The notes under the pieces: generated by a model
Seen by the model: only the letters and a program-made list of their open reading frames with translations
Database searches by the model: none
What the model was told of the DNA's origin: nothing
Position numbers and translations under genes: made by a program
Source: an uncultured Candidatus Saccharibacteria bacterium
GTDB taxonomy: Bacteria; Patescibacteriota; Minisyncoccia; CAIUEV01
DNA: 40,776 nt
Assembly (NCBI GenBank): GCA_964602125.1
Contig: CAZRPR010000001.1
Coordinates: 21,890 to 62,665 of the forward strand
Direction: 5' to 3'
Shown here: piece after piece, positions 1 through 38,796 of the stretch
How the letters are laid out: each line of letters starts with the position of its first letter
How positions within the stretch are numbered: the first letter of the stretch is position 1

Positions 1-55
1 CCTTGTCCCTTGTCCCTTGTCCCTTGTCCCTTGTCCCTTGTCCCTTGTCCCTTGT
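1..55. repeat. Heptanucleotide tandem array (CCCTTGT)n, cut by window edge
   Basis: Read directly: ccttgt followed by 7 perfect cccttgt units. The array ends 6 nt before the typA stop codon (62-64, minus strand). The same unit recurs at 19029-19097 and 38676-38710. Confidence 0.95.
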
Positions 56-61
56 TCCTCT

Positions 62-4460: not shown

Positions 4461-4514
4461 GAAAAACCCCGCATTCATTGGGACAATTTTTTAATTAATT
4501 TTAAAAAATCTCAA

Positions 4515-5750
4515 ATGTACAACAATCGATCAAATCGACCATCCTCCTTTAGTGGAAGAGGTGGTAGGGGAGGGAACAACTCCGGCCGAAGCTTCGGTCA
4601 ATTCAGACCTAAATTTTGGGGGAACCGCAGAGGATCTTCCCAGGGAAAAAGCATTGACGTTTCCCGCTTTATTTCTAAGGCCGCTCCTGGGCAAAGAGAG
4701 GAAGTTTATGTTCCCGCTAATCGCTTTGTTGATTTCGACATTGACAATCGACTGAAGCAAAACATTCTTCAAAAGGGATATACTGATCCTACCCCAATTC
4801 AAGATCAGGTCATTCCTCACATTCTTAACGGCAAGGACTTAGTCGGCTTAGCTGACACCGGCACGGGTAAAACGGCCGCCGTTCTTATTCCTTTGATTGA
4901 CAAAGTGTTGCGTAACCGCAATGACAAAGTTTTGATTATGACCCCGACTCGAGAGTTGGCGTTGCAAATCGAAAGTGAGTTTATCGCTTTTTCAAAGGGG
5001 TTGGGACTTTGGTCAGTAGCCTGTTTTGGTGGATCCAGTTTGGGTCGCCAAATTTCTTTGCTCCGACGCAATCATCACTTCGTTATCGGTACTCCGGGAC
5101 GATTGAAGGACTTAATTGAACGTCGAGTACTTGATCTTTCCGGCTTTAATAACGTCGTTTTAGATGAAGTAGATCGTATGTTTGACATCGGTTTCGTGAA
5201 AGAAATTAAACATTTAATGAGCTTTCTACCGAAAGAGAGACAATCGCTCTTTTTCTCCGCCACCATGTCTCGAAACGTTGAGACCTTGATCGGAGAAGCG
5301 GCTAGAAACCCCATCACTGTTTCCGTCAAAAGAACCACTAATGTTTCCAATATTGAGCAGGATATCATTCGTATTAATCGCTTCCAGGACAAAACGGAAG
5401 TGCTGTGTGAAATGTTAGCCAAAGATGAATTTAAAAAAGTGTTAATTTTCGGTCGTACCAAGATGGGAGTAGACAGACTTTCTCGTACCCTTTACCAAAA
5501 GGGACTTCGCACCGAATCTATTCACGGTGATAAGAATCAACGGGGAAGAGAGAAGGCGCTGAATCTTTTTAAGACTGACCGCATCAATATTCTCGTAGCC
5601 ACGGACGTAGCCGCTCGAGGATTGGATATTCCTGACGTTTCTCACGTCATCAATTTCGATGTACCTCAAACTTACGACGACTACATCCACCGAATCGGTA
5701 GAACCGGCCGCGCCAACAAGAAAGGCCAGGCTTTAACCTTTGTGGAATAG
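4515..5750 (+). CDS. DEAD-box ATP-dependent RNA helicase (DEVD variant) with N-terminal RGG/SR-rich tail
   Basis: Q-motif (TPIQ), ADTGTGKT, PTRELA, DEVD, SAT and HRIGRTGR. The first 45 aa or so are an Arg/Gly/Ser-rich low-complexity region. Confidence 0.92.
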   Translation: MYNNRSNRPSSFSGRGGRGGNNSGRSFGQFRPKFWGNRRGSSQGKSIDVSRFISKAAPGQREEVYVPANRFVDFDIDNRLKQNILQKGYTDPTPIQDQVIPHILNGKDLVGLADTGTGKTAAVLIPLIDKVLRNRNDKVLIMTPTRELALQIESEFIAFSKGLGLWSVACFGGSSLGRQISLLRRNHHFVIGTPGRLKDLIERRVLDLSGFNNVVLDEVDRMFDIGFVKEIKHLMSFLPKERQSLFFSATMSRNVETLIGEAARNPITVSVKRTTNVSNIEQDIIRINRFQDKTEVLCEMLAKDEFKKVLIFGRTKMGVDRLSRTLYQKGLRTESIHGDKNQRGREKALNLFKTDRINILVATDVAARGLDIPDVSHVINFDVPQTYDDYIHRIGRTGRANKKGQALTFVE

Positions 5751-5791: not shown

Positions 5792-5925
5792 AATTCCCCT
5801 CTTGAGAGGGGTGCCCGAACGGTAGTGAGGGCGGGGTGTGTCAACAGTGATTATAGTAATTATTTGTTTCACACACCCCGACTTCGTCGCTTCGCTCCTC
5901 AGCCACCCCTCTCAAGAGGGGAATT
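5792..5925. mobile_element. ORF-less inverted-repeat (MITE-like) element of the Box1/Box2 arm family
   Basis: The left arm 5792-5841 reads aattcccctcttgagaggggtg..cggggtgtgt. The right arm 5871-5925 reads acacaccccg..ccacccctctcaagaggggaatt. The terminal 22 nt and inner 10 nt are perfectly complementary, and the spacer is 29 nt. Same boxes as the arms framing the DUF559 gene at 13573-14066. Confidence 0.75.
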
Positions 5926-6484: not shown

Positions 6485-6526
6485 GGAAGTTGAAAGTTAA
6501 AAGTTAAAAGTTGAAAGTTAAAAGTT
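6485..6526. repeat. Heptanucleotide array (RAAAGTT)6
   Basis: ggaagtt gaaagtt aaaagtt aaaagtt gaaagtt aaaagtt, read directly. Confidence 0.9.
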
Positions 6527-6550
6527 TTCGGAAGATTTTCAATTTCTAAT

Positions 6551-6597
6551 TTTGCATTTTTAACTTTTAATTTTGAATTTTTAACTTTGCATTTTTT
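6551..6597. repeat. Heptad-periodic T-rich array (TTTNNAN), opposite polarity to 6485-6526
   Basis: tttgcat ttttaac ttttaat tttgaat ttttaac tttgcat tttttca. It contains AACTTTT units complementary to the upstream AAAAGTT array and runs into the stop codon (6597-6599) of the YabE-like gene. Confidence 0.8.
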
Positions 6598-7695: not shown

Positions 7696-7965
7696 ATGTT
7701 AAATCAAAAATTGCAAGAAGAGGAAAGTGAATTGGTAAAAATAAGAAGAAATTACCAAATTACAATCCCTCAAATTTTTAGAAAAGATGGCAATCTATCC
7801 TTAGGTGACTATATCGAAATTAAAGCTAAGAAAAACTGTTTCATTCTCAGACCGGTAAAAATAGTTTATTCGGAAGACGTTGCAGACGACGATATTCGAA
7901 GCGGTAGATTAATTGGACCTTTTAAAGACGCTAAGGAAACCATAAAAGCTTTAAAGACCAAATAA
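7696..7965 (+). CDS. AbrB/SpoVT (MazE-like) family antitoxin
   Basis: 89 aa. Swapped-hairpin motif VKIRRNYQITIPQIFRKDGNLSLGDYIEIK...ILRPV. Its stop codon directly abuts the toxin start. Confidence 0.75.
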   Translation: MLNQKLQEEESELVKIRRNYQITIPQIFRKDGNLSLGDYIEIKAKKNCFILRPVKIVYSEDVADDDIRSGRLIGPFKDAKETIKALKTK

Positions 7966-8226
7966 GTGAAAATTTATTTTACCAAAAGCTTCTCTCGAGA
8001 CTATAAAAAATTGAGTAAAGAATTGCAAAAAATTCTTGATAGGAAAATTGGGGTTTTAGTTGAAAATTGGATGCATCCGGGTTTAAGAATCAAAAAAATG
8101 CAAGGATATCAGAATGTTTGGGAGGGAAGGATTACTAGAGGATATCGCTTTACTTTTGAATGGCAGGAAGAGAATCTGATTCTGAGGAGAACCGGTAAAC
8201 ATGATATTTTAGACAAACCGATTTAA
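7966..8226 (+). CDS. RelE/ParE-superfamily toxin
   Basis: 86 aa with a GTG start immediately after the antitoxin TAA. Pattern KIYFTKSF.RDYKKL...L...I......N..HPGL..KK..G....WE.RI...YR..F......I.L...G.HD. Confidence 0.75.
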   Translation: MKIYFTKSFSRDYKKLSKELQKILDRKIGVLVENWMHPGLRIKKMQGYQNVWEGRITRGYRFTFEWQEENLILRRTGKHDILDKPI

Positions 8227-8302
8227 TCTTCAAAATATCACGAAATAATTTCAAAAAATAAAAAATTTGGCTATACTTCTAAGAATGAATAATGGCCAAT
8301 AA

Positions 8303-11300
8303 ATGAAAATAAAAACCCTACTGCTCTCAATCAAATATATCGCTTTTCACCCCATTCGGTCATGGCGGGTTTTTACGCCGAAAACGAAAAGAAGAATCAA
8401 AAAACTAGCATTTGTATTTTTAATAGTGGCCTTGTCTGTGCCGGGCTATTTGTGGTACGAAAAGAAATACGGAAATATTGAAGAGGCGGAGGCCGGCTGG
8501 TGGAACGATGCGTGGATGTATAGAAAATCGATTACGGTAAGCAATTCCTCAGGAAGTGCTCTGACTGATTTTCAAGTGAAGATTTTGGATAATAAAGATT
8601 TGTCGGCCGACATTACGGCAGGGAAGATTCAAACCGATTTGGACGACTTGAGGTTTACGGACATTAGCGGCACAGTTTTGTCTTACTGGATTGAAGATGC
8701 GACCACGACCAGCGTGGATGTTTGGGTAAAAATACCCAGCGTCCCAACGACCGGTGCGACCGCCTATTTTTACTACGGCAACACCCAAGCGACGAGTGAG
8801 CAGAACGGGAACAAGGTTTTTGAGTTTTTTGATGATTTCTCGGGAGATTTAAGCAAATGGACAAATGCGTGTTCAGCCACGATAACTTCAGGATACCTAA
8901 GTATCCCGAATAATAGTAGTTGTGATGCTGTCCCAATGTATGCAAATAACCTAAACTATTCTGATACCACTGGTTACATTTTCGAGTTGAAAGGAAAATT
9001 TTCTTCTGGAGGCAACGGAAGATTACAATTATATCAAAGAAGAAGAAACGCCAATGGATATATGTCCAGATTCTGGATTACGGGTACTTCAACGACTTAT
9101 TATCAAGAATACACAGGAAGTTATGGAGCGAATAATAATGTCGGAAGCAACAATATGTCAGCAGATACCTGGTATACGCTTAAAGTTCAAGTCAATGGAA
9201 GCAATAACACCTATTACGTCAACAATACATCAGTTGGCTCTTATGCAGCATCGGCAAGTCTTTCTCCTTTTTCTGATTTTACAGTTGGCTTGGGAGAATA
9301 TCTAACGGCAGTGCAATATGACGACGTTCGTGTTCGCAAATACGCCTCCACTGACCCCTCCGCCGGCACACCCGCCACCGAAGAAAAAGGGGGTGGACCG
9401 GTTGCATACTGGTCTTTTGATGAAGGCAGGGACACGACGGCTTATGATGCGAGTTCGAATCGTGTTAGTGGCACACTCTATAGTATGTCATCAACGTCTG
9501 ATCCCAATTCTGGCTGGCAAAATGAAGATAAGTGTATTAGTGGAAAGTGCTTGGGTTTTGATGGAACGAATGATGATGTGGAGTTTGGATTAAATAAAAT
9601 AGGCCCTTTGATTGATGGAGCCAGTTCTTCCACAGTCAGTATGTGGGTTAAATACTCATCTCTGGCTGGAGCTGCCAACAAGTACGGCAATGTTATTTAT
9701 GCCAGCAGACAGGCGAGTGCTAATAGTAATATTTGGCTGAATCTAAGAAGTGATGGAGGGAGTGAAGGGAAGCTTTTATTGGGTGGAAGAAGCAAAAGCA
9801 CTGATAGTTTTCAGGAAGTAACAAGCAGTACAGCTCTTAATCCGAATGTTTGGTATCATGTCGTTGGAATTTTGAATTATGCTTCAAATACAGCGACTAT
9901 TTATATAAATGGAGCTCAGTCTGTCAGCTCCGGTGTGTCTTTTGGTTCCACAACTTATGTGCACAGTGCTCCAGGTTCTACGTATGACTCAATAGGATCT
10001 AATGCCGGGGGAATTGTTTTCAAAGGGTATATCGACGAACCAAAGATCTACCCCTACGCTCGCACCGCAGCCCAAATTGCCAAAGACTACAACGCCGGAT
10101 TGGCTGGTATGGGTAAATCTAATGAAGGAACCAGTGCCTCAATTGGTGGCAAATCGAACAAATGGATGACGGACGGTTTGGTGGGCCATTGGAAAATGGA
10201 CGAGGCCAGTTGGAACGGAACGAGTGGAGAAGTGAAAGACGCGAGCGGGAATGCGAATAATGGGACTGGATCTGGGGGAGTTACAACAGGAGCAGGTAAA
10301 TTCGGGAATGGAGGGAATTTTGATGGGAGTGATGATTACGTGAATGCTGGTAACGGATCAAATTTGAATATTACCAATGCAATGACAATTGGAACATGGG
10401 TTAAATTTAATGGTTTAAGCAGCAACTCAGCTATAGTTTCAAAATTCGATTTGAGTGCCGGATCACCCTATAATGGATATGCATTAATAATCGGAGGTGC
10501 GGCATCTAACAGAATAGGATTAAATTTAAATGTAAATGGAGCTTATTCTGGTACTTGGGGAAATACCGTGCTAACTACAGGAGTTTGGTATTATCTTGTG
10601 GCTACATTCACAAATGGTTCGGTGAAGCTTTATGTTAATGGCGTGGATGATGGTTGCAATGGTACGGGTACTGGTTGCTCACCCACTGGTTCGATCTCTA
10701 CTAATACCTTAAATCTAAACATAGGTGAAAATCCAAATGGGGGAAATAAAATAAACGGTTCCATCGACGAAACCCGTATTTACAACCGTGCCCTTTCGCC
10801 CAAAGAAGTGGCCGATCTTTATAATTACGCGCCCGGACCAGTCGGTTATTGGAACATGGACGACGCGACAGGGACGACAACCAAAGATTTGAGCGGGAAT
10901 GGGAATAACGGGACATTGGGTGATTCTTCTTATAGACCCAATTGGTCTCAAGGAAAATATGGAGGCGGTTTGAGTTTCGACGGAACAGACGATTATGTTA
11001 ATGTTGGAGATCCTTCTAGTGGAATTTTAGATATGGGAAATAATGATTTTACGCTTGAAACTTGGTTTAATACAAACAACACTTCCAATCTCCACCAATA
11101 TTTTATGGCCAAAGGACATCTTGATGGCTATTGCGATCAGGCTGCAAATGCAGGATATGGATTTCGCATTAGTTATGGATATTTGAATTTTAAACTTAAT
11201 CCAGGGGCTGTCTCATGCGGAAGTGTTTCGGGAACAACATTAATAAGCTCCTTGCCTACAGGTTGGCACCATGGGGCAGTGGTGGTCAACCGTAGTGGAA

Positions 11301-13567
11301 ATGCCTTGATTTATTTGGATGGAAAATTAGATGGATCAGCTAGTATGTCAACTAATCTGGGTAATAGTCTCAACAATTCAAATAATCTTCGTTTAGGCAA
11401 TTATTATGCCGGTAATTATCTACCTATGAGTGGACTTCTCGATGAAATGAAAATCTACAACTACGCGCGGACGCAAAAGCAAATCGTGGAAGACATGAAC
11501 GGCGGTCATCCGGCGGGTGGCTCGCCGGTCGGTTCGCAAGTCGGCTATTGGAAGTTTGATGAAGGGCAGGGAACGACAGCCAACAATTCAGGTAATGGCG
11601 GATCAACGCTGAACGGGACAATTAATGGCGCGACATGGACGAACGATGGGAAATTTGGAAAGGCGCTTAGTTTTGACGGAAGTAATGATTATGCCAATAC
11701 CTCTTCCCGTATCATTGACAGCACAAATAGTTTTTCAGTTAGTGGCTGGGTAAAATTTAGTAGTCTGTCAAGTAATTACAGTGTCCCCCTCTGGAATGGA
11801 GTCGATAGTACTACGGGTGGATTTGGCCTAGGCTATAGAAAACCAAACTCTAGAGTTATCTATGCGGGCTGGGGTTCTTCTGCCGGAGAAGTGGCTGGAC
11901 CAATAAGTACGGATAACACATGGTACTATTTATCTTCAGTATATGACGGTAGTAAACATAAATTTTATGTTAACGGTGTCTTACAAGGTTCTGTGAATTT
12001 TTCCACTTCAAATTTTGCTAGCGGAACAACCACTTTTGGAAACTTATCTTCCGGTAATGGATATTGGTTTAATGGCCTTATCGACGAAGTAAAAGTCTAT
12101 AATTACGCACTCACCGATTCCGACATTCAACTCGACTACAACCAAGGAAAATCGATGATTCTGGGAAGCAAGGGGACGGAAAGTGATGGGAAGACACCGT
12201 CGAATTCCGCCAGTCGTGCCTACTGCCCTCCGGGAAACGTGGAAGGGAATTGTGCCCCGGGACTAAGCCCCGCCCCGGTAGGTGAATGGAAATTGGATGA
12301 CGGCACCGGCACCACTGTCACTGACACTTCCGGCAACGCCAACACCGGCACCCTCACCAACGGCCCAACATGGGCGCAGGGAAAAGCGGGAAAGGCGGTG
12401 AAATTTGATGGAACGGATGATTTGATCCAATTTTCAACATCAAATTTTCTTACGAACGCAGGTTCGATTTCAGCTTGGGTTAAAAATGATGTTTGGGGAG
12501 CCAGTAATACTGACACTGTCATAGACTTGTATGATAGCACTAATCCTGGTGTCAAAAGAGATGTTTTTACAATAAAATATTGGTCCAGCAACTCAAAACT
12601 AACTGCGATGATGCTTGATTCTAGCAGTAATTGGTATAGTGCTGGAGCGACTGTTACTTACACCCCTAATCTTTGGTATCATGTTGAAATTGTCAGAAGT
12701 GGAACGTCTCTTAAAATATATATTAATGGAGCCGAAGCCGGCTCAGCAACAGTTAGCTCCAATAATTTTTACAATTTTGATAGAATTCGAATAGGACAAT
12801 CAGCAACCAGCAGTGAAGCTTGGCAAGGCCTCATCGACGACGTAAAGATTTTTTCTTACGCCCGCACCCCTGCCCAAATTGCTTGGGATTACAACCAAGG
12901 AAAACCAGTAGGGTGGTGGAAGATGGATGAAGGGCAGGGCGCAACCGTTTACGATCATTCCGGCAACGCCAACAACGGAACGATGACCAACATGGATCCC
13001 GCCACCGATTGGGTGGCCGGCAAGAACAACAGCGCCTTGGATTTTGATGGGAGTAATGATTATGTGAGTGTGGCAGATAATAATCTTTGGAATTTTGGGA
13101 CAAATGATTTTTCCATAAATCTTTGGGCCAAGTGGACGAGCTTAGCTAATATTGAAAGTATATTGGGCCAGTCAACTAGTGGTGGAAATGTGACAAAGTG
13201 GAATTTAGTAAAAAGTATGAATACTAGTTTTGGATATGATAATTCTTTACTAACATTTCATGTTTATAATGGAGGTAATTATTTTGCTTCTTGGAATTGG
13301 ACGGCGAGCACAAACACTTGGTATAATGTGGCAATCGTAAGATCAGGAAACAATTGGAATTTGTATGTTAATGGTATTCAGACTGGCGGAACGCAAACGC
13401 AATCTGCCTCAGTTCCTAACATTGCTACAGACTTGAGAATAGGTAGCGACGGAGAAGCCTGGAATTTTTTAAATGGTCAAATCGACGACGTCCGCATCTA
13501 TAATTACGCGTTGTCAGCGGAACAGGTGAAACAGGTAATGAACGAAGGTGCGGTGAGGTTCAAATAG
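8303..13567 (+). CDS. Giant surface protein: N-terminal TM, DUF2341 domain, one ConA-like module and six LamG (Laminin_G_3) repeats
   Basis: 1754 aa. DUF2341 signature WWNDAWMYRKSITV..LTDFQV..DLRFTD..LSYWIED..VWVKIPS..YFYYGN. Six modules each open with VG.W..DEG.GTT..D.SGN.N.GT and close with IDE.(K/R)IYNYA......I..DYN. Confidence 0.9.
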   Translation: MKIKTLLLSIKYIAFHPIRSWRVFTPKTKRRIKKLAFVFLIVALSVPGYLWYEKKYGNIEEAEAGWWNDAWMYRKSITVSNSSGSALTDFQVKILDNKDLSADITAGKIQTDLDDLRFTDISGTVLSYWIEDATTTSVDVWVKIPSVPTTGATAYFYYGNTQATSEQNGNKVFEFFDDFSGDLSKWTNACSATITSGYLSIPNNSSCDAVPMYANNLNYSDTTGYIFELKGKFSSGGNGRLQLYQRRRNANGYMSRFWITGTSTTYYQEYTGSYGANNNVGSNNMSADTWYTLKVQVNGSNNTYYVNNTSVGSYAASASLSPFSDFTVGLGEYLTAVQYDDVRVRKYASTDPSAGTPATEEKGGGPVAYWSFDEGRDTTAYDASSNRVSGTLYSMSSTSDPNSGWQNEDKCISGKCLGFDGTNDDVEFGLNKIGPLIDGASSSTVSMWVKYSSLAGAANKYGNVIYASRQASANSNIWLNLRSDGGSEGKLLLGGRSKSTDSFQEVTSSTALNPNVWYHVVGILNYASNTATIYINGAQSVSSGVSFGSTTYVHSAPGSTYDSIGSNAGGIVFKGYIDEPKIYPYARTAAQIAKDYNAGLAGMGKSNEGTSASIGGKSNKWMTDGLVGHWKMDEASWNGTSGEVKDASGNANNGTGSGGVTTGAGKFGNGGNFDGSDDYVNAGNGSNLNITNAMTIGTWVKFNGLSSNSAIVSKFDLSAGSPYNGYALIIGGAASNRIGLNLNVNGAYSGTWGNTVLTTGVWYYLVATFTNGSVKLYVNGVDDGCNGTGTGCSPTGSISTNTLNLNIGENPNGGNKINGSIDETRIYNRALSPKEVADLYNYAPGPVGYWNMDDATGTTTKDLSGNGNNGTLGDSSYRPNWSQGKYGGGLSFDGTDDYVNVGDPSSGILDMGNNDFTLETWFNTNNTSNLHQYFMAKGHLDGYCDQAANAGYGFRISYGYLNFKLNPGAVSCGSVSGTTLISSLPTGWHHGAVVVNRSGNALIYLDGKLDGSASMSTNLGNSLNNSNNLRLGNYYAGNYLPMSGLLDEMKIYNYARTQKQIVEDMNGGHPAGGSPVGSQVGYWKFDEGQGTTANNSGNGGSTLNGTINGATWTNDGKFGKALSFDGSNDYANTSSRIIDSTNSFSVSGWVKFSSLSSNYSVPLWNGVDSTTGGFGLGYRKPNSRVIYAGWGSSAGEVAGPISTDNTWYYLSSVYDGSKHKFYVNGVLQGSVNFSTSNFASGTTTFGNLSSGNGYWFNGLIDEVKVYNYALTDSDIQLDYNQGKSMILGSKGTESDGKTPSNSASRAYCPPGNVEGNCAPGLSPAPVGEWKLDDGTGTTVTDTSGNANTGTLTNGPTWAQGKAGKAVKFDGTDDLIQFSTSNFLTNAGSISAWVKNDVWGASNTDTVIDLYDSTNPGVKRDVFTIKYWSSNSKLTAMMLDSSSNWYSAGATVTYTPNLWYHVEIVRSGTSLKIYINGAEAGSATVSSNNFYNFDRIRIGQSATSSEAWQGLIDDVKIFSYARTPAQIAWDYNQGKPVGWWKMDEGQGATVYDHSGNANNGTMTNMDPATDWVAGKNNSALDFDGSNDYVSVADNNLWNFGTNDFSINLWAKWTSLANIESILGQSTSGGNVTKWNLVKSMNTSFGYDNSLLTFHVYNGGNYFASWNWTASTNTWYNVAIVRSGNNWNLYVNGIQTGGTQTQSASVPNIATDLRIGSDGEAWNFLNGQIDDVRIYNYALSAEQVKQVMNEGAVRFK

Positions 13568-13623
13568 AAGCTAATCCCCTCTTGAGAGGGGTGGATTCGA
13601 GCGAAGCGAGAAGACGGGGTGTG

Positions 13624-13986
13624 TTATCTATTTAGAATCCAAGTTCTTATTGTTTCTATTACTCCAAACATATTTTTTCTAATTTCACCTTCTGAAAATC
13701 TAAGAAAATTTATTCCTAAAGATTCAATTTCTTTTTGTCTTTCTATATCTTTCTTGTTCTTTTCTTCTTCAAAATCATGAGTTACTCCATCAATTTCTAT
13801 AGCTAATTTTAACTCCTTGGAATAAAAATCAACGATATATTTTTTGATTGGTTTTTGTCTAATAAATCTATAGTTCTCAAGTTTTTTTCCTTTTAGTTCT
13901 TTCCATAGCAAAACTTCAGACAAGGTACTTTCCTTTCTTAGTTTCCTAGCTAGTTTTTTTAAGTTTTGATTGTAGAGAATCTTCAT
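13624..13986 (-). CDS. DUF559 / Vsr-like PD-(D/E)XK endonuclease-domain protein
   Basis: 120 aa. LRKESTLSEVLLWKELKGKKL..YRFIRQKPI..YIVDFY....LAIEIDG..H.........D..R...L...G...LRF is the typical DUF559 pattern. Confidence 0.85.
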   Translation of the reverse strand: MKILYNQNLKKLARKLRKESTLSEVLLWKELKGKKLENYRFIRQKPIKKYIVDFYSKELKLAIEIDGVTHDFEEEKNKKDIERQKEIESLGINFLRFSEGEIRKNMFGVIETIRTWILNR

Positions 13987-14027
13987 TATTATTTTTTAAA
14001 GATTAAAACACACCCCGTCTTGCCTTC

Positions 14028-14047
14028 CCTGCCTACCGGCAGGCAGG
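14028..14047. repeat. 20-nt palindrome copy (cctgcctaccggcaggcagg) nested in the right arm
   Basis: Read directly. It is extended by flanking cttgcc..ggcaag to a hairpin of about 38 nt and occupies the variable cassette between Box2 and Box1. Confidence 0.9.
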
Positions 14048-14186
14048 CGGCAAGCCACCCCTCTCGAGAGGGGATTAAAACATGCCTTGATAAATTTCTC
14101 TTAAAATCTAAATTAAAATAAAAATAGAAAAATATTTTTTAATTGTTTTTGAGAATCAAATTGATGTCTTATAATTAAAAAATGAC

Positions 14187-14255
14187 ACACACCCCGTCTT
14201 GCCTTCCCTGCCTACCGGCAGGCAGGCGGCAAGCCACCCCTCTCAAGAGGGGATT
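14187..14255. repeat. Solo second right arm (Box2-palindrome-Box1), tandem to the DUF559 element
   Basis: acacaccccgtcttgccttccctgcctaccggcaggcaggcggcaagccacccctctcaagaggggatt is nearly identical to 14008-14066 (tcaa versus tcga in the Box1 core). The two arms are separated by 120 nt of AT-rich sequence. Confidence 0.85.
14207..14226. repeat. 20-nt palindrome copy nested in the solo arm
   Basis: cctgcctaccggcaggcagg, read directly. Confidence 0.9.
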
Positions 14256-14299: not shown

Positions 14300-14725
14300 A
14301 TGTCTTACGAACAAAAGCATCCCGCCTTCAATCTTGAAATGAATCCTGAGTTGGATTTACTGAAAATCCGAGTCAGGGAAATCATCGATTTCACAGAAAA
14401 AAACATTGAGACCGATAGTAGCAACCAAGACCTTGCAAATCTTTTTGAGAGAGAGGAGGAGTGGAGAAACAACTTGATTGAGATAAAAAATCTGCTGGAA
14501 AACTCCACGGTCAAGCAAAACATGGTCGACAGTAGCGATTATTCTGATATCGTGGGCAATTTCTACGGTTTTGTCTTTCTCTATTTGCAGACCCTCGCCT
14601 CCGGCAAAAAGCTTGAAAACCGAGATGACTTATTAGAGAAAATCAAGACTAAAACAGGCAATTTCCTAATCTACCTTGAAGGATTAAAAGAAGTTGGAGA
14701 AAAAGAGGAACCTCTCGCCGCTTAA
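14300..14725 (+). CDS. Hypothetical acidic protein
   Basis: 141-aa ORF with no overlapping long ORF of better quality. No family recognised. Confidence 0.5.
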   Translation: MSYEQKHPAFNLEMNPELDLLKIRVREIIDFTEKNIETDSSNQDLANLFEREEEWRNNLIEIKNLLENSTVKQNMVDSSDYSDIVGNFYGFVFLYLQTLASGKKLENRDDLLEKIKTKTGNFLIYLEGLKEVGEKEEPLAA

Positions 14726-15413: not shown

Positions 15414-15520
15414 GAAATTAGGAATTAAGGGAATTATAAATTTTAAATTATGGATTATGAATTTTTTCTATTAAGGAGAGGTTCTATAATCTACAATCTA
15501 TAATTTCCGTAATTTCTAAA
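15414..15520. repeat. Composite AT-rich heptad arrays (GAAATTA GGAATTA ... ATGGATT ATGAATT; ATCTACA ATCTATA ...)
   Basis: Read directly. It shares the 14-mer gaaattaggaatta with 36475-36488 and the 14-mer aaattatggattat (15445-15458) with 18957-18970. Confidence 0.75.
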
Positions 15521-18993: not shown

Positions 18994-19028
18994 CAACTTT
19001 GAACTTTTAACTTTTAACTTTTAACTTT
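18994..19028. repeat. Heptanucleotide array (NAACTTT)5
   Basis: caacttt gaacttt taacttt taacttt taacttt, read directly. Confidence 0.9.
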
Positions 19029-19097
19029 CCCCTTGTCCCTTGTTCCTTGTTCCTTGTCCCCTGTTCCTTGTTCCTTGTTCCTTGTTCCTTGTTCCTT
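19029..19097. repeat. Heptanucleotide array (YCCTTGT), about 9 units
   Basis: ccccttgt cccttgt tccttgt tccttgt cccctgt tccttgt x5. It ends 4 nt before the leuS stop codon (19102-19104). Confidence 0.9.
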
Positions 19098-22113: not shown

Positions 22114-22148
22114 CTACTTTGAACTTTGAACTTTTAACTTTTAACTTC
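22114..22148. repeat. Heptanucleotide array (NAACTTY)5 overlapping the 3' end of the second nrdD-like gene
   Basis: ctacttt gaacttt gaacttt taacttt taacttc. The last four codons (E V K S) and the TAA stop (22134-22136) of the minus-strand ORF are encoded by the array. Confidence 0.9.
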
Positions 22149-26115: not shown

Positions 26116-26724
26116 TTAAAGACTATTACTAATTAAAATTATCGCCTTCATCTCCTCTCCCGCCTCCATCCCCGCTTCACCTGCTATCAAATCGGCCGGC
26201 GTCAGTTGCTTTGCCTTACTCAAATTAAGAGTGGCCAAGGCAATAGTTCGATTCGAATTTTCCACGTAGCGAATAAATTTCAAGATATTAAAAAAATTGC
26301 CTGAAACCTCCAAGCGAAGCCAAACCTCCTCATTTTTTTTGTCTTCCGTCTTTGGTTCAAGATTTTTTACTCCCACTTTTTTGACTTGAGGTTTTTCTCC
26401 CACTCCCGTTTTCAGCTCCACTCCGGTGTAAGAAGCTCCTTCTTCCAACTCTTTGATTAAATCTAAGGTAAGTCCACTATTCATCAAAGTTTTTTCAAAA
26501 AGCTCCTTCGTCTGTTTTATTTCCTCCAGGCTCTCCTTGATCTTCTCGAAAGATTCGAGTTGCTTTAAGGTTTCTTCATTATAAGTTTTCTTGTCTTCCA
26601 AGGCTATTTTTTCTTGTTTAATGCGTTGGAACAAATACCACGTGCCAAAAGAGGCCACCACCACAAAGGGGATCACCCACAAACAGAACACTCTCAACAG
26701 ACCGTAAACATTTTTCTTTTGCAT
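26116..26724 (-). CDS. PilO-like type IV pilus assembly protein
   Basis: 202 aa. N-terminal TM, coiled-coil, and C-terminal WLRLEVSGNFFNILKFIRYVENSNR.IALATLNL resembling the PilO core. Confidence 0.45.
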   Translation of the reverse strand: MQKKNVYGLLRVFCLWVIPFVVVASFGTWYLFQRIKQEKIALEDKKTYNEETLKQLESFEKIKESLEEIKQTKELFEKTLMNSGLTLDLIKELEEGASYTGVELKTGVGEKPQVKKVGVKNLEPKTEDKKNEEVWLRLEVSGNFFNILKFIRYVENSNRTIALATLNLSKAKQLTPADLIAGEAGMEAGEEMKAIILISNSL

Positions 26725-26784
26725 TTTTGTTATTTTTTCTTCTTGTTTTTTTACAATATCAGATTTTTTTGTTTTGTGGGATTA
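26724..26784. repeat. 61-bp perfect direct repeat, copy 1
   Basis: tttttgttattttttcttcttgtttttttacaatatcagatttttttgttttgtgggatta is identical to 28878-28938. It abuts the PilO-like start codon and contains the stop codon of the upstream gene. Confidence 0.95.
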
Positions 26785-28833
26785 AGCAAGGATTTTCATG
26801 ATAACGTTTTCCCATTTCAATTCATTATTACTAAAATTGTAATCCGCATCTCTTTTAGTAAGTAGTTTAAAATTTTTCTCAACGTCAAAAATCATCAACT
26901 CCATCTTGTTTTCTTCTTCTTTTCTTATAAGCAAAGCTATTTTTTTTGAATCTGGAGACCATAATAATTTGGTTTGGGAAATCGTCTCGTGATATTTAGC
27001 CGGATATTCTCTTTGGATAGAGAAAACCGTTTCTCCACTCCTATTTCCCACAGTAATACCATAATGATTGGAATAATTATACGCCGCAACCAACCGTCCG
27101 CTCGGAGACCATTCATAGCCAACTCCGTACTGTAATCGGCTAGTTGTTTTTCCACTCTCCGTATCAATTAAATAAGCGACCTCGCACTCAGTTCCACAAC
27201 CTGAATAAACTACGGCTTCTTTTTCATCAAGCCAGTTCCAATCAGAGGTGTGGTAATCGCCTGTATATATTTTTTTACGAATACTTTTCATAGTATCCAC
27301 AACTAATAATTCTGTTTTATCTTTATAAAATTCGTTTTCTTTTTGAGATTCCGAAGCAAAATATCCTATTCGGATATTCTTTGGAGAAATTTTCAAATGA
27401 CTTTTTTCCGTCTTATTGTCATCTAAAATAATTTCGTTGTCTTTCTCTTTTTTAATCAATTTATTATTTTTAATAAAGAACTCTATTCTTCTATCCGCTT
27501 CTACTATTTCCGCCGTTAAGGATGAAGATTGATTTATGGCAGAGAAAACAACAATAAAAAAAGTAGTTCCCAAACCCAAACAAATTGCTACGAAAAATAA
27601 AAATGTTATTTTTGAAAATCCTTCGTTACCCTTTCTTTTGAGCTCATAAAAAAGAGTATTCCCAATTTTTATTTTTAATTCAGCCTCAGGAGTTTTAGTC
27701 CAATAAGGAAAATCTATATAATCAGAAAAATAATGGTTAGCTCCATTTGTCGGATCCCTCAATCTATCATTGACTATCTTTCCTGCTATTTCATAGCACT
27801 GACGCCAAGAGGCTTCTTGGCTAGCATCTTCAAGCGGATTTTCAACAAAAATCCGATTTTTATCTTCTTTCTTAAAAGCATCAAATTGTTTATCCTGTAA
27901 AATTACTTCGTGATAGTTATTAGGCCACCCAATGCCATCGGTCACTCTATTTTTAATAACCCACCCAATAGCAGTTTTTCCTTTAGCTGAGAGGCTCCTG
28001 CCTTCTCCAAAAATGGCCCTTGCCAGAATCATTTGGTCGCTGTCGTCCTTGAAGTCTCCGGTCCATAGCGGATTATCCTCAGTAGGTGTTCTTAGGGTCT
28101 CCTCTGTTTCGCCTATTTTAATTCTAACTCGGGACAAATGGGGTGTTTTATCAGCCCATAGCTCTATGTAATGCAACTCTTGTGAAAGATTAAGATCTTC
28201 AGCAAACTCTTTCTCTTGTCCTTCAAGAATTTTTCCACACCAATACCAATTTCTGTACCACCATGTTTCTTTATTCTTAACTATTTTTCCATCTATAATA
28301 AGTTTTATGTCCTCCCCATCTCTTGCTTTTTTATCCGCAGAAGCTATGATTTCTAATCTTTTTAGGGAGATGTTAGCCAAAACAATTGCCATCCATGGTC
28401 TGCGATCCCCGTCTTGAGGAGGATTATTTATGTTTGTAGAATAAGAAAATTCCTTTTTTTCAGTTTGAGATATTTTAATATATTCCAAACGAGGGCTCTG
28501 GTCAGCAAAAAATTTCAGAAAGTGCTCGCCTTTTTCAAGATTAATTAATATCAAATTGGTTTTAGAAAGTCCCTTCAGCTCACCTCCATTCCAAGAGGCT
28601 TCTCCATTATACAACTTCTCTTTTCCATCTAATCTGGAAAAACTAATATTATCAACCTTGACCCAGAGATCATCGTCTTGAGAAAAAAATCTTCCCCCAA
28701 CAAAGTTCTGCCACCAACTTCGAGCATTGGCGACTATTTCTATGGAGTACAGCCCATCTTCATTAACCTCAAAACGATAATCAAATTCGTTGTCAACTTC
28801 GATGTCGAGTTGTTCTTCTTTGATAGTTTTCAA
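26782..28833 (-). CDS. Multidomain protein: N-terminal beta-sandwich-like region, SleB/CwlJ-type cell-wall hydrolase domain, TM helix, C-terminal TolB-like beta-propeller
   Basis: 683 aa. Hydrolase_2-like ILARAIFGEGRS....KTAIGWVIKNRV...WPN.YHEVI....QFDAF......NGANHYFS. TM segment ITFLFFVAICLGLGTTFFIVVFSAI. C-terminal WSP(S/D)G/WSPDSKKIALL propeller-type repeats. Confidence 0.6.
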   Translation of the reverse strand: MKTIKEEQLDIEVDNEFDYRFEVNEDGLYSIEIVANARSWWQNFVGGRFFSQDDDLWVKVDNISFSRLDGKEKLYNGEASWNGGELKGLSKTNLILINLEKGEHFLKFFADQSPRLEYIKISQTEKKEFSYSTNINNPPQDGDRRPWMAIVLANISLKRLEIIASADKKARDGEDIKLIIDGKIVKNKETWWYRNWYWCGKILEGQEKEFAEDLNLSQELHYIELWADKTPHLSRVRIKIGETEETLRTPTEDNPLWTGDFKDDSDQMILARAIFGEGRSLSAKGKTAIGWVIKNRVTDGIGWPNNYHEVILQDKQFDAFKKEDKNRIFVENPLEDASQEASWRQCYEIAGKIVNDRLRDPTNGANHYFSDYIDFPYWTKTPEAELKIKIGNTLFYELKRKGNEGFSKITFLFFVAICLGLGTTFFIVVFSAINQSSSLTAEIVEADRRIEFFIKNNKLIKKEKDNEIILDDNKTEKSHLKISPKNIRIGYFASESQKENEFYKDKTELLVVDTMKSIRKKIYTGDYHTSDWNWLDEKEAVVYSGCGTECEVAYLIDTESGKTTSRLQYGVGYEWSPSGRLVAAYNYSNHYGITVGNRSGETVFSIQREYPAKYHETISQTKLLWSPDSKKIALLIRKEEENKMELMIFDVEKNFKLLTKRDADYNFSNNELKWENVIMKILA

Positions 28834-28877: not shown

Positions 28878-28938
28878 TTTTTGTTATTTTTTCTTCTTGT
28901 TTTTTTACAATATCAGATTTTTTTGTTTTGTGGGATTA
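28878..28938. repeat. 61-bp perfect direct repeat, copy 2
   Basis: Identical to 26724-26784. It lies 44 nt upstream of the start codon of the 26782-28833 gene (minus strand). Confidence 0.95.
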
Positions 28939-31643: not shown

Positions 31644-31731
31644 TGGCGGAGAGGCAGGGATTTGAACCCTGGGTACCTTGCGGTACACCGGTTTTCGAAA
31701 CCGGCGCCTTAAACCACTCAGCCACCTCTCC
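31644..31731 (-). tRNA. tRNA-Ser (anticodon CGA), CCA encoded
   Basis: Hand-folded: GGAGAGG-TG-D arm-G-CCGGT-TTCGAAA-ACCGG, long variable arm TGTACCGCAAGGTACC, then CAGGG-TTCAAAT-CCCTG-CCTCTCC-G-CCA. 88 nt. Confidence 0.9.
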
Positions 31732-31736
31732 AAAAT

Positions 31737-31819
31737 TGGTGGGTGATGCAGGAATCGAACCTGCGACCTTACGAATGTGAATCGTACGCTCCCTGCCTGC
31801 CGGCAGGCAGGTAACCAAC
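31737..31819 (-). pseudogene. 5'-truncated tRNA-Val(CAC)-like fragment with the 20-nt palindrome in its D-loop
   Basis: The minus-strand reading is GTTGGTTA + CCTGCCTGCCGGCAGGCAGG + GAGC-G-TACGA-TTCACAT-TCGTA-AGGTC-GCAGG-TTCGATT-CCTGC-ATCACCC-A-CCA. The 5' acceptor strand and 5' D-stem strand are absent. It abuts the CCA of the intact tRNA-Val with no spacer. Confidence 0.8.
31792..31811. repeat. 20-nt perfect palindrome CCTGCCTGCCGGCAGGCAGG
   Basis: Read directly. This is the only perfect copy. It sits between D-loop GGTTA and the 3' D-stem GAGC of the Val-like fragment. Confidence 0.95.
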
Positions 31820-31896
31820 TGGTGGACTTGAGAGGGCTCGAACCTCTGACCTCGGCGATGTGAACGCCGCGCTCTAACCAACTGAGCTACAAGTCC
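31820..31896 (-). tRNA. tRNA-Val (anticodon CAC), CCA encoded
   Basis: GGACTTG-TA-GCTC-AGTTGGTTA-GAGC-G-CGGCG-TTCACAT-CGCCG-AGGTC-AGAGG-TTCGAGC-CCTCT-CAAGTCC-A-CCA. 77 nt. Confidence 0.92.
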
Positions 31897-33936: not shown

Positions 33937-33941
33937 CTTTG

Positions 33942-34015
33942 TCGGGGTACTGGGACTCGAACCCAGAACCTCCTGCTCCCAAAGCAGGCGCCCTAACCAA
34001 TTAGGCCATACCCCG
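33942..34015 (-). tRNA. tRNA-Pro (anticodon TGG)
   Basis: CGGGGTA-TG-GCCT-AATTGGTTA-GGGC-G-CCTGC-TTTGGGA-GCAGG-AGGTT-CTGGG-TTCGAGT-CCCAG-TACCCCG-A. 74 nt, no CCA. Confidence 0.9.
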
Positions 34016-34039
34016 TTTACGAAATTTTAAAGATTGGTT

Positions 34040-34104
34040 TCCTGCTCCCAAAGCAGGCGCCCCCTGCCTACCGGCAGGCAGGTAACCAATTAGGCCATAC
34101 CCCG
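34040..34104 (-). pseudogene. 3'-truncated duplicate of tRNA-Pro(TGG) with the 20-nt palindrome in its D-loop
   Basis: The minus-strand reading is CGGGGTATGGCCTAATTGGTTA + CCTGCCTGCCGGTAGGCAGG + GGGCGCCTGCTTTGGGAGCAGGA. The 22 + 23 nt are identical to the intact gene 24 nt downstream. The T-arm and 3' acceptor strand are absent. Confidence 0.85.
34063..34082. repeat. 20-nt palindrome copy
   Basis: cctgcctaccggcaggcagg on the plus strand, between D-loop GGTTA and the 3' D-stem GGGC of the Pro fragment. Confidence 0.95.
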
Positions 34105-34132
34105 TCAACCGTTTTTAACACAGTAAAAACGA

Positions 34133-36474: not shown

Positions 36475-36561
36475 GAAATTAGGAATTATAAATTATAAAT
36501 TATAGACTTGCCTGACGGTTTACCTCCCGTTAGGGATGGTAGCCAGGTTATAGATTATGGA
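36475..36561. repeat. Composite: AT-rich heptads (GAAATTA GGAATTA TAAATTA TAAATTA) flanking a GC-rich imperfect hairpin
   Basis: Heptads read directly. The centre 36511-36547, cctgacggtttacctcccgttagggatggtagccagg, folds as CCTG..TACC-TCCC-gtta-GGGA-GGTA..CAGG. This is the same layout as the palindrome-in-array at 38676-38796. Confidence 0.6.
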
Positions 36562-38675: not shown

Positions 38676-38796
38676 CCCCTTTTCCTTGTCCCTTGTACCT
38701 TGTTCCTCCAATAATTTATAACCTGCCTACCGGCAGGCAGGCTTTCCCCTTGTTCCTCCATAATTTATAATCTCTAATTTATAATTTCTAATCTCC
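38676..38796. repeat. Composite heptad arrays (NCCTTGT then TAATTTA/TAATCTC types) interrupted by the 20-nt palindrome
   Basis: tccttgt cccttgt accttgt tcctcca ataattt ataa | palindrome | ctttcc ccttgt tcctcca taattta taatctc taattta taatttc taatctc. Confidence 0.85.
38722..38741. repeat. 20-nt palindrome copy
   Basis: cctgcctaccggcaggcagg. It is flanked by a 23/24-nt direct duplication ccttgttcctcca(a)taatttataa (38698-38721 and 38748-38770). Confidence 0.95.

Follow-up and report, generated by a model that had tools for sequence, protein, structure and literature searches.

In a 40,776-nucleotide (nt) stretch of an uncultured Candidatus Saccharibacteria bacterium (assembly GCA_964602125.1, contig CAZRPR010000001.1, positions 21,890 to 62,665; here, the window is the whole of this stretch), a 20-base palindrome stands upstream of uvrB between two long direct repeats, and the locus raises the question of what this palindrome is and whether its arrival made the duplication. 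The palindrome, which we call PAL, has the consensus CCTGCCT(A/G)CCGGCAGGCAGG, and its predicted hairpin has a free energy of -6 to -8 kcal/mol as DNA. An original prediction, drawn from the window's sequence, had proposed that the 20-mer behaves as an independent insertion or recombination module associated with duplicated flanks. We conclude that PAL is probably a very small noncoding mobile element, a 20-bp unit that is inserted exactly, with neither duplication nor loss of target bases.

PAL occurs five times in the window, the number originally predicted, whereas none is expected (it was absent from 100 shuffles). The copies at 14028, 14207, 34063, and 38722 carry A at position 8 on the plus strand (the A-variant), and the copy at 31792 is a perfect palindrome. 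Apart from the uvrB-upstream site, the copies lie in two tRNA fragments and in a pair of "Box" repeats, as had been noted, and the tRNA copies can be compared with intact genes close by. The A-variant at 34063..34082 (plus strand, with the G.T form on the tRNA-sense strand) interrupts a partial tRNA-Pro(TGG) copy (34039..34106, minus strand, approximately nt 1 to 45), where it lies in the D-loop of the duplicated 5' half at GGTTA^GGGC. A 23-nt spacer (34016-34038) separates this fragment from the intact tRNA-Pro gene (33941-34015), which the junction matches over 46 nt once PAL is removed. The perfect palindrome at 31792..31811 (no strand assigned) lies in the D-loop of a tRNA-Val(CAC) pseudogene at GGTTA^GAGC. 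This pseudogene (31732..31819, minus strand), without its first ~14 nt, stands between an intact tRNA-Val gene (31820-31896) and a tRNA-Ser gene (31644-31731), and its junction minus PAL equals the D-arm of the intact tRNA-Val over 15 nt. At both tRNA junctions, exactly 20 nt were gained and zero target bases were duplicated or lost. The two Box copies are an 81-nt direct repeat (13996-14076 and 14175-14255); each holds an A-variant PAL on the plus strand (14028..14047 and 14207..14226, 179 nt apart), nested in the loop of a hairpin that is itself PAL-like, CTTGCC TTC^C GGCAAG, and each also holds a second palindrome, CCCCTCTCGAGAGGGG, after PAL. Box copy 2 lies in the divergent promoter region between a DUF559 open reading frame (ORF) and the ORF at 14300-14725.

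A scan of one genome per species (596 Gb) found the 20-mer in at least 120 stretches whose hosts are labelled as at least 10 phyla, whereas by our own estimate, at equal base frequencies, chance would yield ~2 matches. It was also found in 48 viral stretches, several copies being present in some, and among the genome and viral matches listed the flanks were unrelated from copy to copy. The host labels comprise Patescibacteria (many classes), Bacteroidota, Omnitrophota, Planctomycetota, Nitrospirota, Chloroflexi, Ignavibacteria, Bdellovibrionota, Thermodesulfobacteriota, and others, with Winogradskyella, Flagellimonas, Olivibacter, Longitalea, and Flavivirga as cultured Bacteroidota hosts. PAL exists in two forms, the perfect palindrome and the position-8 A variant, in which one strand has an A.C mismatch and the opposite strand a G.T pair; these forms are seldom found in one locus and thus behave as genome-specific subfamilies. 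Decayed copies are few, with 10 one-mismatch variants other than 8A/13T plus one 8A/13T variant, compared with 122 perfect copies (112 loci).

At ~40 independent sites (tRNA duplicates, array units, and composite repeats), the same junction is also present without PAL no more than 600 nt away, so that the target is known. At nearly all of these sites the offset was 0, meaning that exactly 20 bp had been added with no target duplication and no loss; four sites deviated, by -4 to +2. Aligning the flanks across copies, which had been suggested as a way to find consistent duplication lengths and a target consensus, thus yielded no recurrent duplication length, and the consensus extended only to the bordering bases. 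On the CCTGCCTACCGG strand, the base before PAL was C in 29, A in 14, G in 5, and T in none of 48 genome copies, and the base after it was C in 31, T in 15, A in 1, and G in 1. This flank rule (C/A before, C/T after) was repeated in 14 oriented viral copies, and joint counts for 63 copies gave 26 C..C, 17 A..C, 9 C..T, and 4 A..T. Only positions -1 and +1 were biased; the flank profiles contained neither a tetranucleotide tag nor a target motif of 4 to 5 nt. Because the preferences on the two sides are not complementary, unlike those of a symmetric double-strand process, the event appears to distinguish the strands. PAL also inserts into itself, always at C9^C10 of the outer copy (L020, L026, L059, L065, and probably L110), and in the oriented cases (L020 and L065) the inner and outer copies had the same orientation. 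Within genes and tRNA fragments the G.T form was mostly on the sense strand, in small numbers. The part of the original prediction that treated the 20-mer as an independent insertion module is borne out by these clean 20-bp insertions, by nesting, by the unrelated flanks across phyla, and by a gene position that occurs both filled and empty.

That position lies in the gene for TrpRS. Where PAL is in frame in genes it always reads LPAGRQ; the proteins concerned include FtsK, a histidine kinase, membrane glycosyltransferase-like proteins, and TrpRS itself. A set of 120 close homologues of one Daviesbacteria TrpRS includes 8 with GLPAGRQ at one position and others that are empty there, which provides the presence/absence comparison that had been proposed for strains. 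The empty DNA reads GAA GTT and the filled DNA GAA GG[C CTG CCT GCC GGY AGG CAG G]TT; the insert is PAL plus one extra G (21 nt), since only in this way is the reading frame held. The eight filled alleles occupy at least seven places on a neighbor-joining tree, and the nearest neighbor of each is empty except for one sister pair. PAL is identical at 18 to 20 of its 20 positions between alleles whose flanks are ~75% identical, and no flanking haplotype is shared among the filled alleles. Homing-type co-conversion was rejected for this site: over 60 nt on each side, filled alleles were no more like each other than like empty ones. Near-identical PAL sequences in such diverged, haplotype-unlinked alleles indicate that the TrpRS copies are young relative to the genes, and the pattern reflects either repeated gain at one permissive codon or many precise losses. 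At the same TrpRS position, two other alleles (L181:800-870, protein P0054, and also P0060) have a different insertion of 6 to 7 residues, P-SASSGQV or P-STSSGQV, which is either another element or a decayed insertion.

The uvrB-upstream site had been described as a 24- and 23-nt direct duplication around the palindrome and a ctttcc spacer, and this layout and its coordinates matched the sequence. The PAL copy (A-variant, 38722..38741, plus strand) reads CCTGCCTACCGGCAGGCAGG, lies 62 nt 5' of the uvrB start codon, and is bordered by A before and C after. The left repeat copy, ccttgttcctccaataatttataa (24 nt, 38698-38721, plus strand), ends exactly at PAL; directly 3' of PAL come ctttcc (38742-38747) and then the right repeat copy, ccttgttcctccataatttataa (23 nt, 38748-38770), and this plus-strand segment (38742..38770) runs on into a TAATYTM array and the uvrB start codon. 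The repeats show 23/24 identity, the difference being one extra A. By eye the homology is wider, extending over ~38677-38721 versus 38742-38770: the left block reads, from ~38677, CTTTTCC, three units of CCTTGTM, CCTCCAA, and TAATTTATAA, and the blocks differ by two heptamer units. On this wider homology, both blocks abut PAL, one on each side. Heptamer arrays (CCTTGTM, then TAATYTM; 38684..38795, plus strand) enclose PAL and the duplication, with 3.4 units of CCTTGTA at 38684-38707 and TAATCTC/TAATTTA units at 38761-38795. The left/right flank similarity at this copy was the highest of 128 copies compared, with a Smith-Waterman score of 41 (scores of at least 32 were reached by 0.2% of random positions). 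After PAL, TAA precedes the CTTTCCCCTTGT with which the right-hand block starts, and this 15-nt string recurs without PAL near 19021 (in the segment 18991-19050), at the junction of two heptamer arrays.

On the most likely reading of the 24/23-nt duplication, a heptamer-array block was duplicated in tandem, and PAL lies where the two blocks meet. We read the array block as [CCTTGTY]n-CCTCCA(A)-TAATTTA..., with PAL inserted at A^C, in agreement with the flank rule. From the other sites and the PAL-free look-alike near 19021, we infer that the duplication came first and PAL later; an intact downstream block would then remain beside uvrB. The view that a long flanking duplication is part of the insertion is contradicted by the ~40 sites with a PAL-free junction, where no stretch of target, long or short, is duplicated. 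The outcome for the window itself is more modest, in that the flank duplication would be an ordinary repeat-block duplication and no new type of target duplication. An independent run assembly (L121) has an identical sequence at this locus. Two others (L122 and L123) both end at the last bases of PAL, corresponding to 38740-38741 of the window, and these breaks at the palindrome make PAL a practical cause of contig fragmentation.

If PAL is a mobile element of this kind, its insertion would be strand specific and would not proceed through a staggered double-strand cut; a nick or a transaction on single-stranded DNA, carried out in trans, would fit better than a DDE transposase, and the enzyme would be encoded elsewhere and itself be horizontally spread. 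In compact genomes, copies would persist only where they are harmless, that is, in dead or partial tRNA copies, tandem arrays, repeat-element loops, and protein loops, the last through a rare 21-nt version that keeps the frame and reads GLPAGRQ. Any mechanism beyond "exact, strand asymmetric, and trans acting" is inference. Several results weigh against such an element. No family linked with PAL emerged as a mobilizing enzyme in the 120 loci, and no transposition intermediate is known to us; all-versus-all clustering of 1,775 ORFs from these loci (8 kb each) gave no family present in more than 8 loci. A metagenome search for an empty or unduplicated allele of the uvrB-upstream site returned 0 matches. 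All TrpRS insertions are at the identical nucleotide with the same extra G, which is awkward for many independent hits, and most of the non-Bacteroidota hosts are metagenome bins. No replication-strand bias was seen (GC skew was positive on the A-variant strand in 24 of 48 loci), nor any transcription bias of intergenic copies relative to neighboring genes (7 of 16). Of 182 junctions from which PAL had been removed, 21.4% fell within a hairpin loop predicted with a stem of 4 bp or more, compared with 20.9% of 1,294 random positions, and hairpin-loop targeting was rejected as a general rule on these figures, despite PAL's own loop, the tRNA D-loops, and the Box hairpin. Given this lack of loop enrichment, a single-strand or hairpin mechanism is indicated solely by the asymmetric flanks and the absence of target duplication.

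A scan of metagenomes for PAL a few bases after TCAG returned many insertions in tRNA D-arms, at GG(T)TA^GAGC or TAGA^GC. Nearly all were in a 5' tRNA fragment (from nt 1 to ~28 to 65) followed, in the same orientation, by an intact and usually cognate tRNA. The gaps were of two classes: one of 8 to 80 nt and one in which the intact tRNA starts 243 to 288 nt after PAL. The longer gap holds an ORF of 75 to 87 amino acids (aa) that consists of a GIY-YIG catalytic domain only and matches PF01541 with E values of 1e-13 to 1e-19. This order of 5' tRNA fragment with PAL, GIY-YIG ORF, and intact cognate tRNA was found in at least 15 loci and for many tRNA types; examples are L052:2100-2480, L204:3950-4330, L234, L236, L289, L292, L193, L203, L214, L190, L025, L093, L237, and L168. 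Tandem cassettes occur in L289 and L240. The cassette looks like a putative selfish gene for a nuclease, one that settles in tRNA genes and leaves their 5' part in duplicate, and in this respect it resembles free-standing GIY-YIG homing endonuclease genes, which are small ORFs situated next to a conserved gene that is partly duplicated. The likeness is one of sequence layout. Unlike those genes, the cassette ORFs have 75 to 87 aa with the catalytic domain and no DNA-binding domain, and the gene that they target is that of a bacterial tRNA, with duplication of its 5' part. The literature that we searched contained no description of this GIY-YIG/tRNA mini-cassette. In the window, 34039-34106 shows the fragment and intact tRNA-Pro arranged as in the cassettes, in a short form from which the ORF is absent; no GIY-YIG ORF is present in the window, and only the 23-nt spacer parts fragment and gene. 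The anatomy of the tRNA-Pro half-copy resembles that left by stand-alone GIY-YIG/tRNA cassettes, as judged from sequence. On the simplest reading, the cassettes make dead tRNA fragments in which PAL, intolerable in a live gene, survives.

These cassettes suggest a closer tie, in which the nuclease cuts tRNA genes, integration of the cassette duplicates the 5' part, and GIY-YIG proteins act as the general trans factor, with PAL placed by break repair or favored by selection for abolishing the nuclease site of the remaining fragment. We consider such a tie unlikely. It would account for the recurrent layout in at least 15 loci, for PAL or a close variant in fragments that had not been chosen for PAL (L118, L297, and the third unit of L240), for the half-copy of the same anatomy in the window, and for the 5 of ~175 PAL copies (PAL-only scans) that are no more than 100 nt from an ORF of this kind, despite the rarity of such ORFs (0.5 to 0.7 per 100 kb). 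Most PAL copies, however, are far from any GIY-YIG ORF or tRNA, the five window copies are accompanied by no such ORF, and the cassette in L112 is PAL free; survival in dead tRNA fragments would produce the association without a functional tie, and the constant 20-nt sequence is more than a nuclease alone supplies. PAL might instead be a selected cis element, such as a protein-binding site or a regulatory or terminator hairpin, that spread through a conserved host factor. What speaks for selection is the extreme conservation across phyla, the scarcity of decayed copies beside perfect ones, the near-perfect PAL of TrpRS alleles whose synonymous sites have diverged, and the tRNA-Pro fragment with PAL, which is 66/66 identical between the window and a relative, compared with 20/23 for the spacer. 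We nonetheless regard this explanation as very improbable: copies lie in pseudogenes, in coding sequences, and in each other, with no fixed position or orientation to genes, copy number differs between close relatives, no terminator-type T-tract follows the hairpin, and an Rfam 15 search of the window returned five tRNAs only, with PAL matching no family at gathering score.

The other two alternatives start from the repeats around PAL. The flanks of PAL copies are indeed unusually similar to each other. A left/right Smith-Waterman score of at least 20 was reached by 13.3% of copies versus 2.6% of random positions (enrichment of ~5-fold, rising to ~12-fold at scores of at least 24), and an exact shared flank word of at least 10 nt by 4.7% of copies versus 1.0% of non-ORF controls. 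The earlier proposal of a recombination or insertion site that generates long flank duplications of variable length, either as a 7-6-7 tyrosine recombinase core or through wide staggered cuts, draws on this enrichment, on 7-bp arms and a 6-bp center that by inspection resemble a minimal recombinase core, on partial duplicates in all three non-Box contexts of the window, and on cases in which PAL separates two copies of one sequence (window 38722, L006, and L109). But such cases make up only ~5% of copies and sit in tandem arrays whose other unit junctions are PAL free (e.g., L006 and L096), PAL lies inside one of the duplicated tRNA halves rather than between them, and where the target is known the flanks are contiguous, with nothing duplicated or lost. 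No recombinase is linked with PAL in the 120 loci or in the window. We therefore find it quite improbable that PAL is a recombination site that makes the duplications, whereas the statistical link to local repeats, which was the other half of that claim, stands. PAL tends to occupy one copy of a sequence that was repeated beforehand, and the link is best explained by survival of PAL in redundant DNA, not by insertion chemistry. A period-7 array lay within 100 nt of PAL in 15% of cases versus 1.6%, a difference that narrowed to 13% versus 5% when restricted to non-ORF sequence, so that the heptamer link arises mostly because both features are intergenic; among the tandem repeats in PAL-bearing loci of other phyla, too, a period of 7 is the most frequent (210 arrays). 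That nothing is mobile at all, the duplication being heptamer slippage and the palindromes chance, ancient decayed repeats, or slippage with fold-back synthesis, is scarcely credible. The uvrB-upstream site does lie within heptamer arrays, its duplication is itself read as an array-level event, and the palindrome can be written as (TGCC)2(GGCA)2, yet slippage or simple ancient repeats would not give five copies where none is expected, identical exact boundaries at hundreds of unrelated sites, the same two subfamilies recurrently, or a single TrpRS codon that is either filled or empty.

Among described systems, the small dispersed repeats (SDRs) of Nostocaceae are the closest to PAL. SDR4 to SDR6 were reportedly described by Elhai et al. 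in 2008 as nested, hairpin-forming sequences of 21 to 27 nt that occur in heptamer arrays; we know of no enzyme for them, and PAL is presumably unrelated to them in sequence. Like SDRs, PAL is shorter than 30 nt, hairpin forming, noncoding, nested, and found in heptamer arrays and other small elements. In articles on SDRs, these repeats are reported only in Nostocaceae, and the SDR5 insertion point is given as lying between the third and fourth nt of GCGATCGC, off-center in the HIP1 palindrome (PMC5861425, PMC4390886, PMC3116915). PAL is similarly precise and off-center in a palindromic target (C9^C10 of itself). Unlike SDRs, it is 20 nt long and a perfect palindrome or one transition off, occurs in at least 10 phyla and in viral contigs (the hosts found are not cyanobacteria), and is found in frame inside essential genes and in tRNA fragments as well.

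Repetitive extragenic palindromes (REPs) are defined by a palindrome with an unpaired tag, GTAG or CGTC, at one of its ends (PMC3733652), and REPs and REPINs are mobilized by RAYTs, which are IS200/IS605-like Y1 transposases (PMC3733652, PMC3116915). PAL resembles them as a short (20- to 40-bp class), GC-rich, dispersed, and multicopy palindrome that is sometimes inside genes, and for both, movement as a single-strand hairpin without target duplication is likely. The ends of PAL carry neither GTAG nor CGTC, and the GTAG of its variant lies inside the stem-loop, so that PAL does not qualify as a tagged REP. In contrast to REPINs it has no typical inverted-dimer organization, and REP families are specific to species or genera while PAL is identical across phyla. 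A RAYT or TnpA gene was linked with PAL in none of the 120 loci, and the window contains no RAYT or IS200-like transposase. PAL is not a miniature inverted-repeat transposable element either, since it has no target duplication (offset 0 at the ~40 sites with a known target). Its two 10-nt halves can be read as abutted inverted repeats. A tyrosine-recombinase core or att site was rejected on the grounds that the flanks are one contiguous target, not two unrelated DNAs, and that no recombinase is linked. IS200/IS605 elements move by "peel and paste" and require two ends that differ; they integrate on the 3' side of a conserved tetra- or pentanucleotide. PAL shares with them the absence of target duplication, strand-asymmetric junctions, and a central hairpin, and, in contrast to them, it consists of one 20-nt hairpin, has a preference only at -1/+1, and shows no detected GC-skew bias. 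Rickettsia palindromic elements (Ogata et al., 2000) are reportedly ~100 to 150 bp long and restricted to Rickettsia, and the GC clusters of yeast mitochondria are organellar, are 30 to 50 bp long, and duplicate a TAG target. Like both, PAL is a selfish palindromic insert in AT-rich, compact genomes that survives in frame and in RNA genes; unlike both, it is 20 bp long, leaves its target unduplicated, and is pan-bacterial. Neither the 20-mer nor any of its 12-mers was matched in the literature searched, although a prior description elsewhere is possible, and searches by concept returned only REP, SDR, and mitochondrial analogues.

PAL is among the smallest and most widely spread pieces of mobile DNA known to us. 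The letter-identical 20 bp in Patescibacteria, Bacteroidota, Planctomycetota, Nitrospirota, and viral contigs imply either a shared enzyme or an unaccounted route for very short DNA, and neither is explained by known transposases. More boldly, and tentatively, PAL could be the cargo-less substrate of a one-strand, duplication-free insertion activity that is now active in at least 10 bacterial phyla and in their phages, with the GIY-YIG proteins of 75 to 87 aa as one candidate. No smaller mobile element with horizontal spread would then be known, essential genes such as that of TrpRS would be struck by PAL again and again at one and the same permissive codon, and PAL would be one member of a larger, undescribed collection of mini-palindromes that cross phyla, for example the CCCTCTCC...GGAGAGGG modules beside PAL. 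The exact 20-mer offers a concrete handle with which to find the insertion activity by phylogenetic profiling. PAL also explains several nuisances, namely, contig breaks, the pseudo-tRNA fragments of compact genomes, and 7-residue "LPAGRQ" insertions that turn up spuriously in essential proteins. It further leads to another selfish system that is poorly described, that of the GIY-YIG genes that have only the catalytic domain and lie in duplicated tRNA genes.

The mini-palindrome modules were seen as composites of CCCTCTCC-loop-GGAGAGGG, PAL, and G.TGGGGGTGAGG in one viral contig and in unrelated metagenomes (L151:950-1010, L152:300-370 and 4480-4550, L269, L295, and L098:1250-1320), once in frame in a histidine-kinase ORF (SLSFGEGQ-GLPAGRQ). 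Such composites suggest a wider set of cross-phylum mini-palindromes that cluster together. The end of another viral contig (L171:3916-4142) consists of at least 10 tandem 21-nt units of CCATGCCTACCGGCAGGCAGG, a PAL variant plus C, which could be a genuine array or the product of an assembly loop where the contig stops; other PAL variants in this contig overlap start codons (MPTGRQ...).

Relatives of the window on record belong to one lineage (L124 and L302, 31.7 kb syntenic), with ~50 to 55% protein identity to the window for fast-evolving ORFs. Only the two tRNA-linked PAL copies are shared between the window and L124, where the orthologue of the 31792 copy is an A-variant and the tRNA-Val pseudogene region keeps a degenerate 5' end and a 36-nt spacer, the latter deleted in the window. 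In the 12.4 kb of L302 syntenic with window positions 2 to 20 kb, there is neither PAL nor a CCCCTCT..AGAGGGG hairpin. This second GC-rich palindrome, CCCCTCT(C/T)(G/A)AGAGGGG, occurs five times in the window (5796-5811, 5906-5921, 13576-13591, 14058-14073, and 14237-14252). A frame of ACACACCCCG...AGCCACCCCTCTCAAGAGGGGA encloses PAL in both Box copies and another inner module at 5870-5925, and L302 has no copy of the second palindrome or of its frame.

The window genes are housekeeping genes (BipA, a DEAD helicase, two NrdD, LeuRS, RuvX, UvrB, and rubrerythrin) of a kind common in small anaerobic Patescibacteria-type genomes, and no transposase or recombinase was found among the window ORFs. 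A block at 7696-13986, comprising a MazE-like ORF, an 86-aa ORF, a 1,754-aa ORF with internal repeats of ~650 to 750 nt, and a DUF559/Vsr-like endonuclease ORF, is absent from the syntenic L302, where one unrelated 193-aa ORF stands. The start of Box copy 1 is 10 nt away from the start codon of the DUF559 ORF; this endonuclease was rejected as a linked gene, its family not being recurrent near PAL (it occurs there in just one other locus). Heptamer arrays (CCTTGTC, AACTTTT, TAATTTA, and others) fill many intergenic regions of the window (1-59, 6487-6596, 15432-15504, 18995-19097, 22116-22147, 36476-36504, and 38684-38795). The intact tRNA-Pro gene has a promoter-like match at 34024-34051 (minus strand; consensus match only, 9/12), with a -35 element, TTGGGA, from the anticodon region of the fragment and a -10 element, TAAAAT, from the 23-nt spacer. 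Finally, a perfect 61-nt direct repeat (26724-26784 and 28878-28938) surrounds a 683-aa cell-wall-hydrolase ORF (26782-28833).

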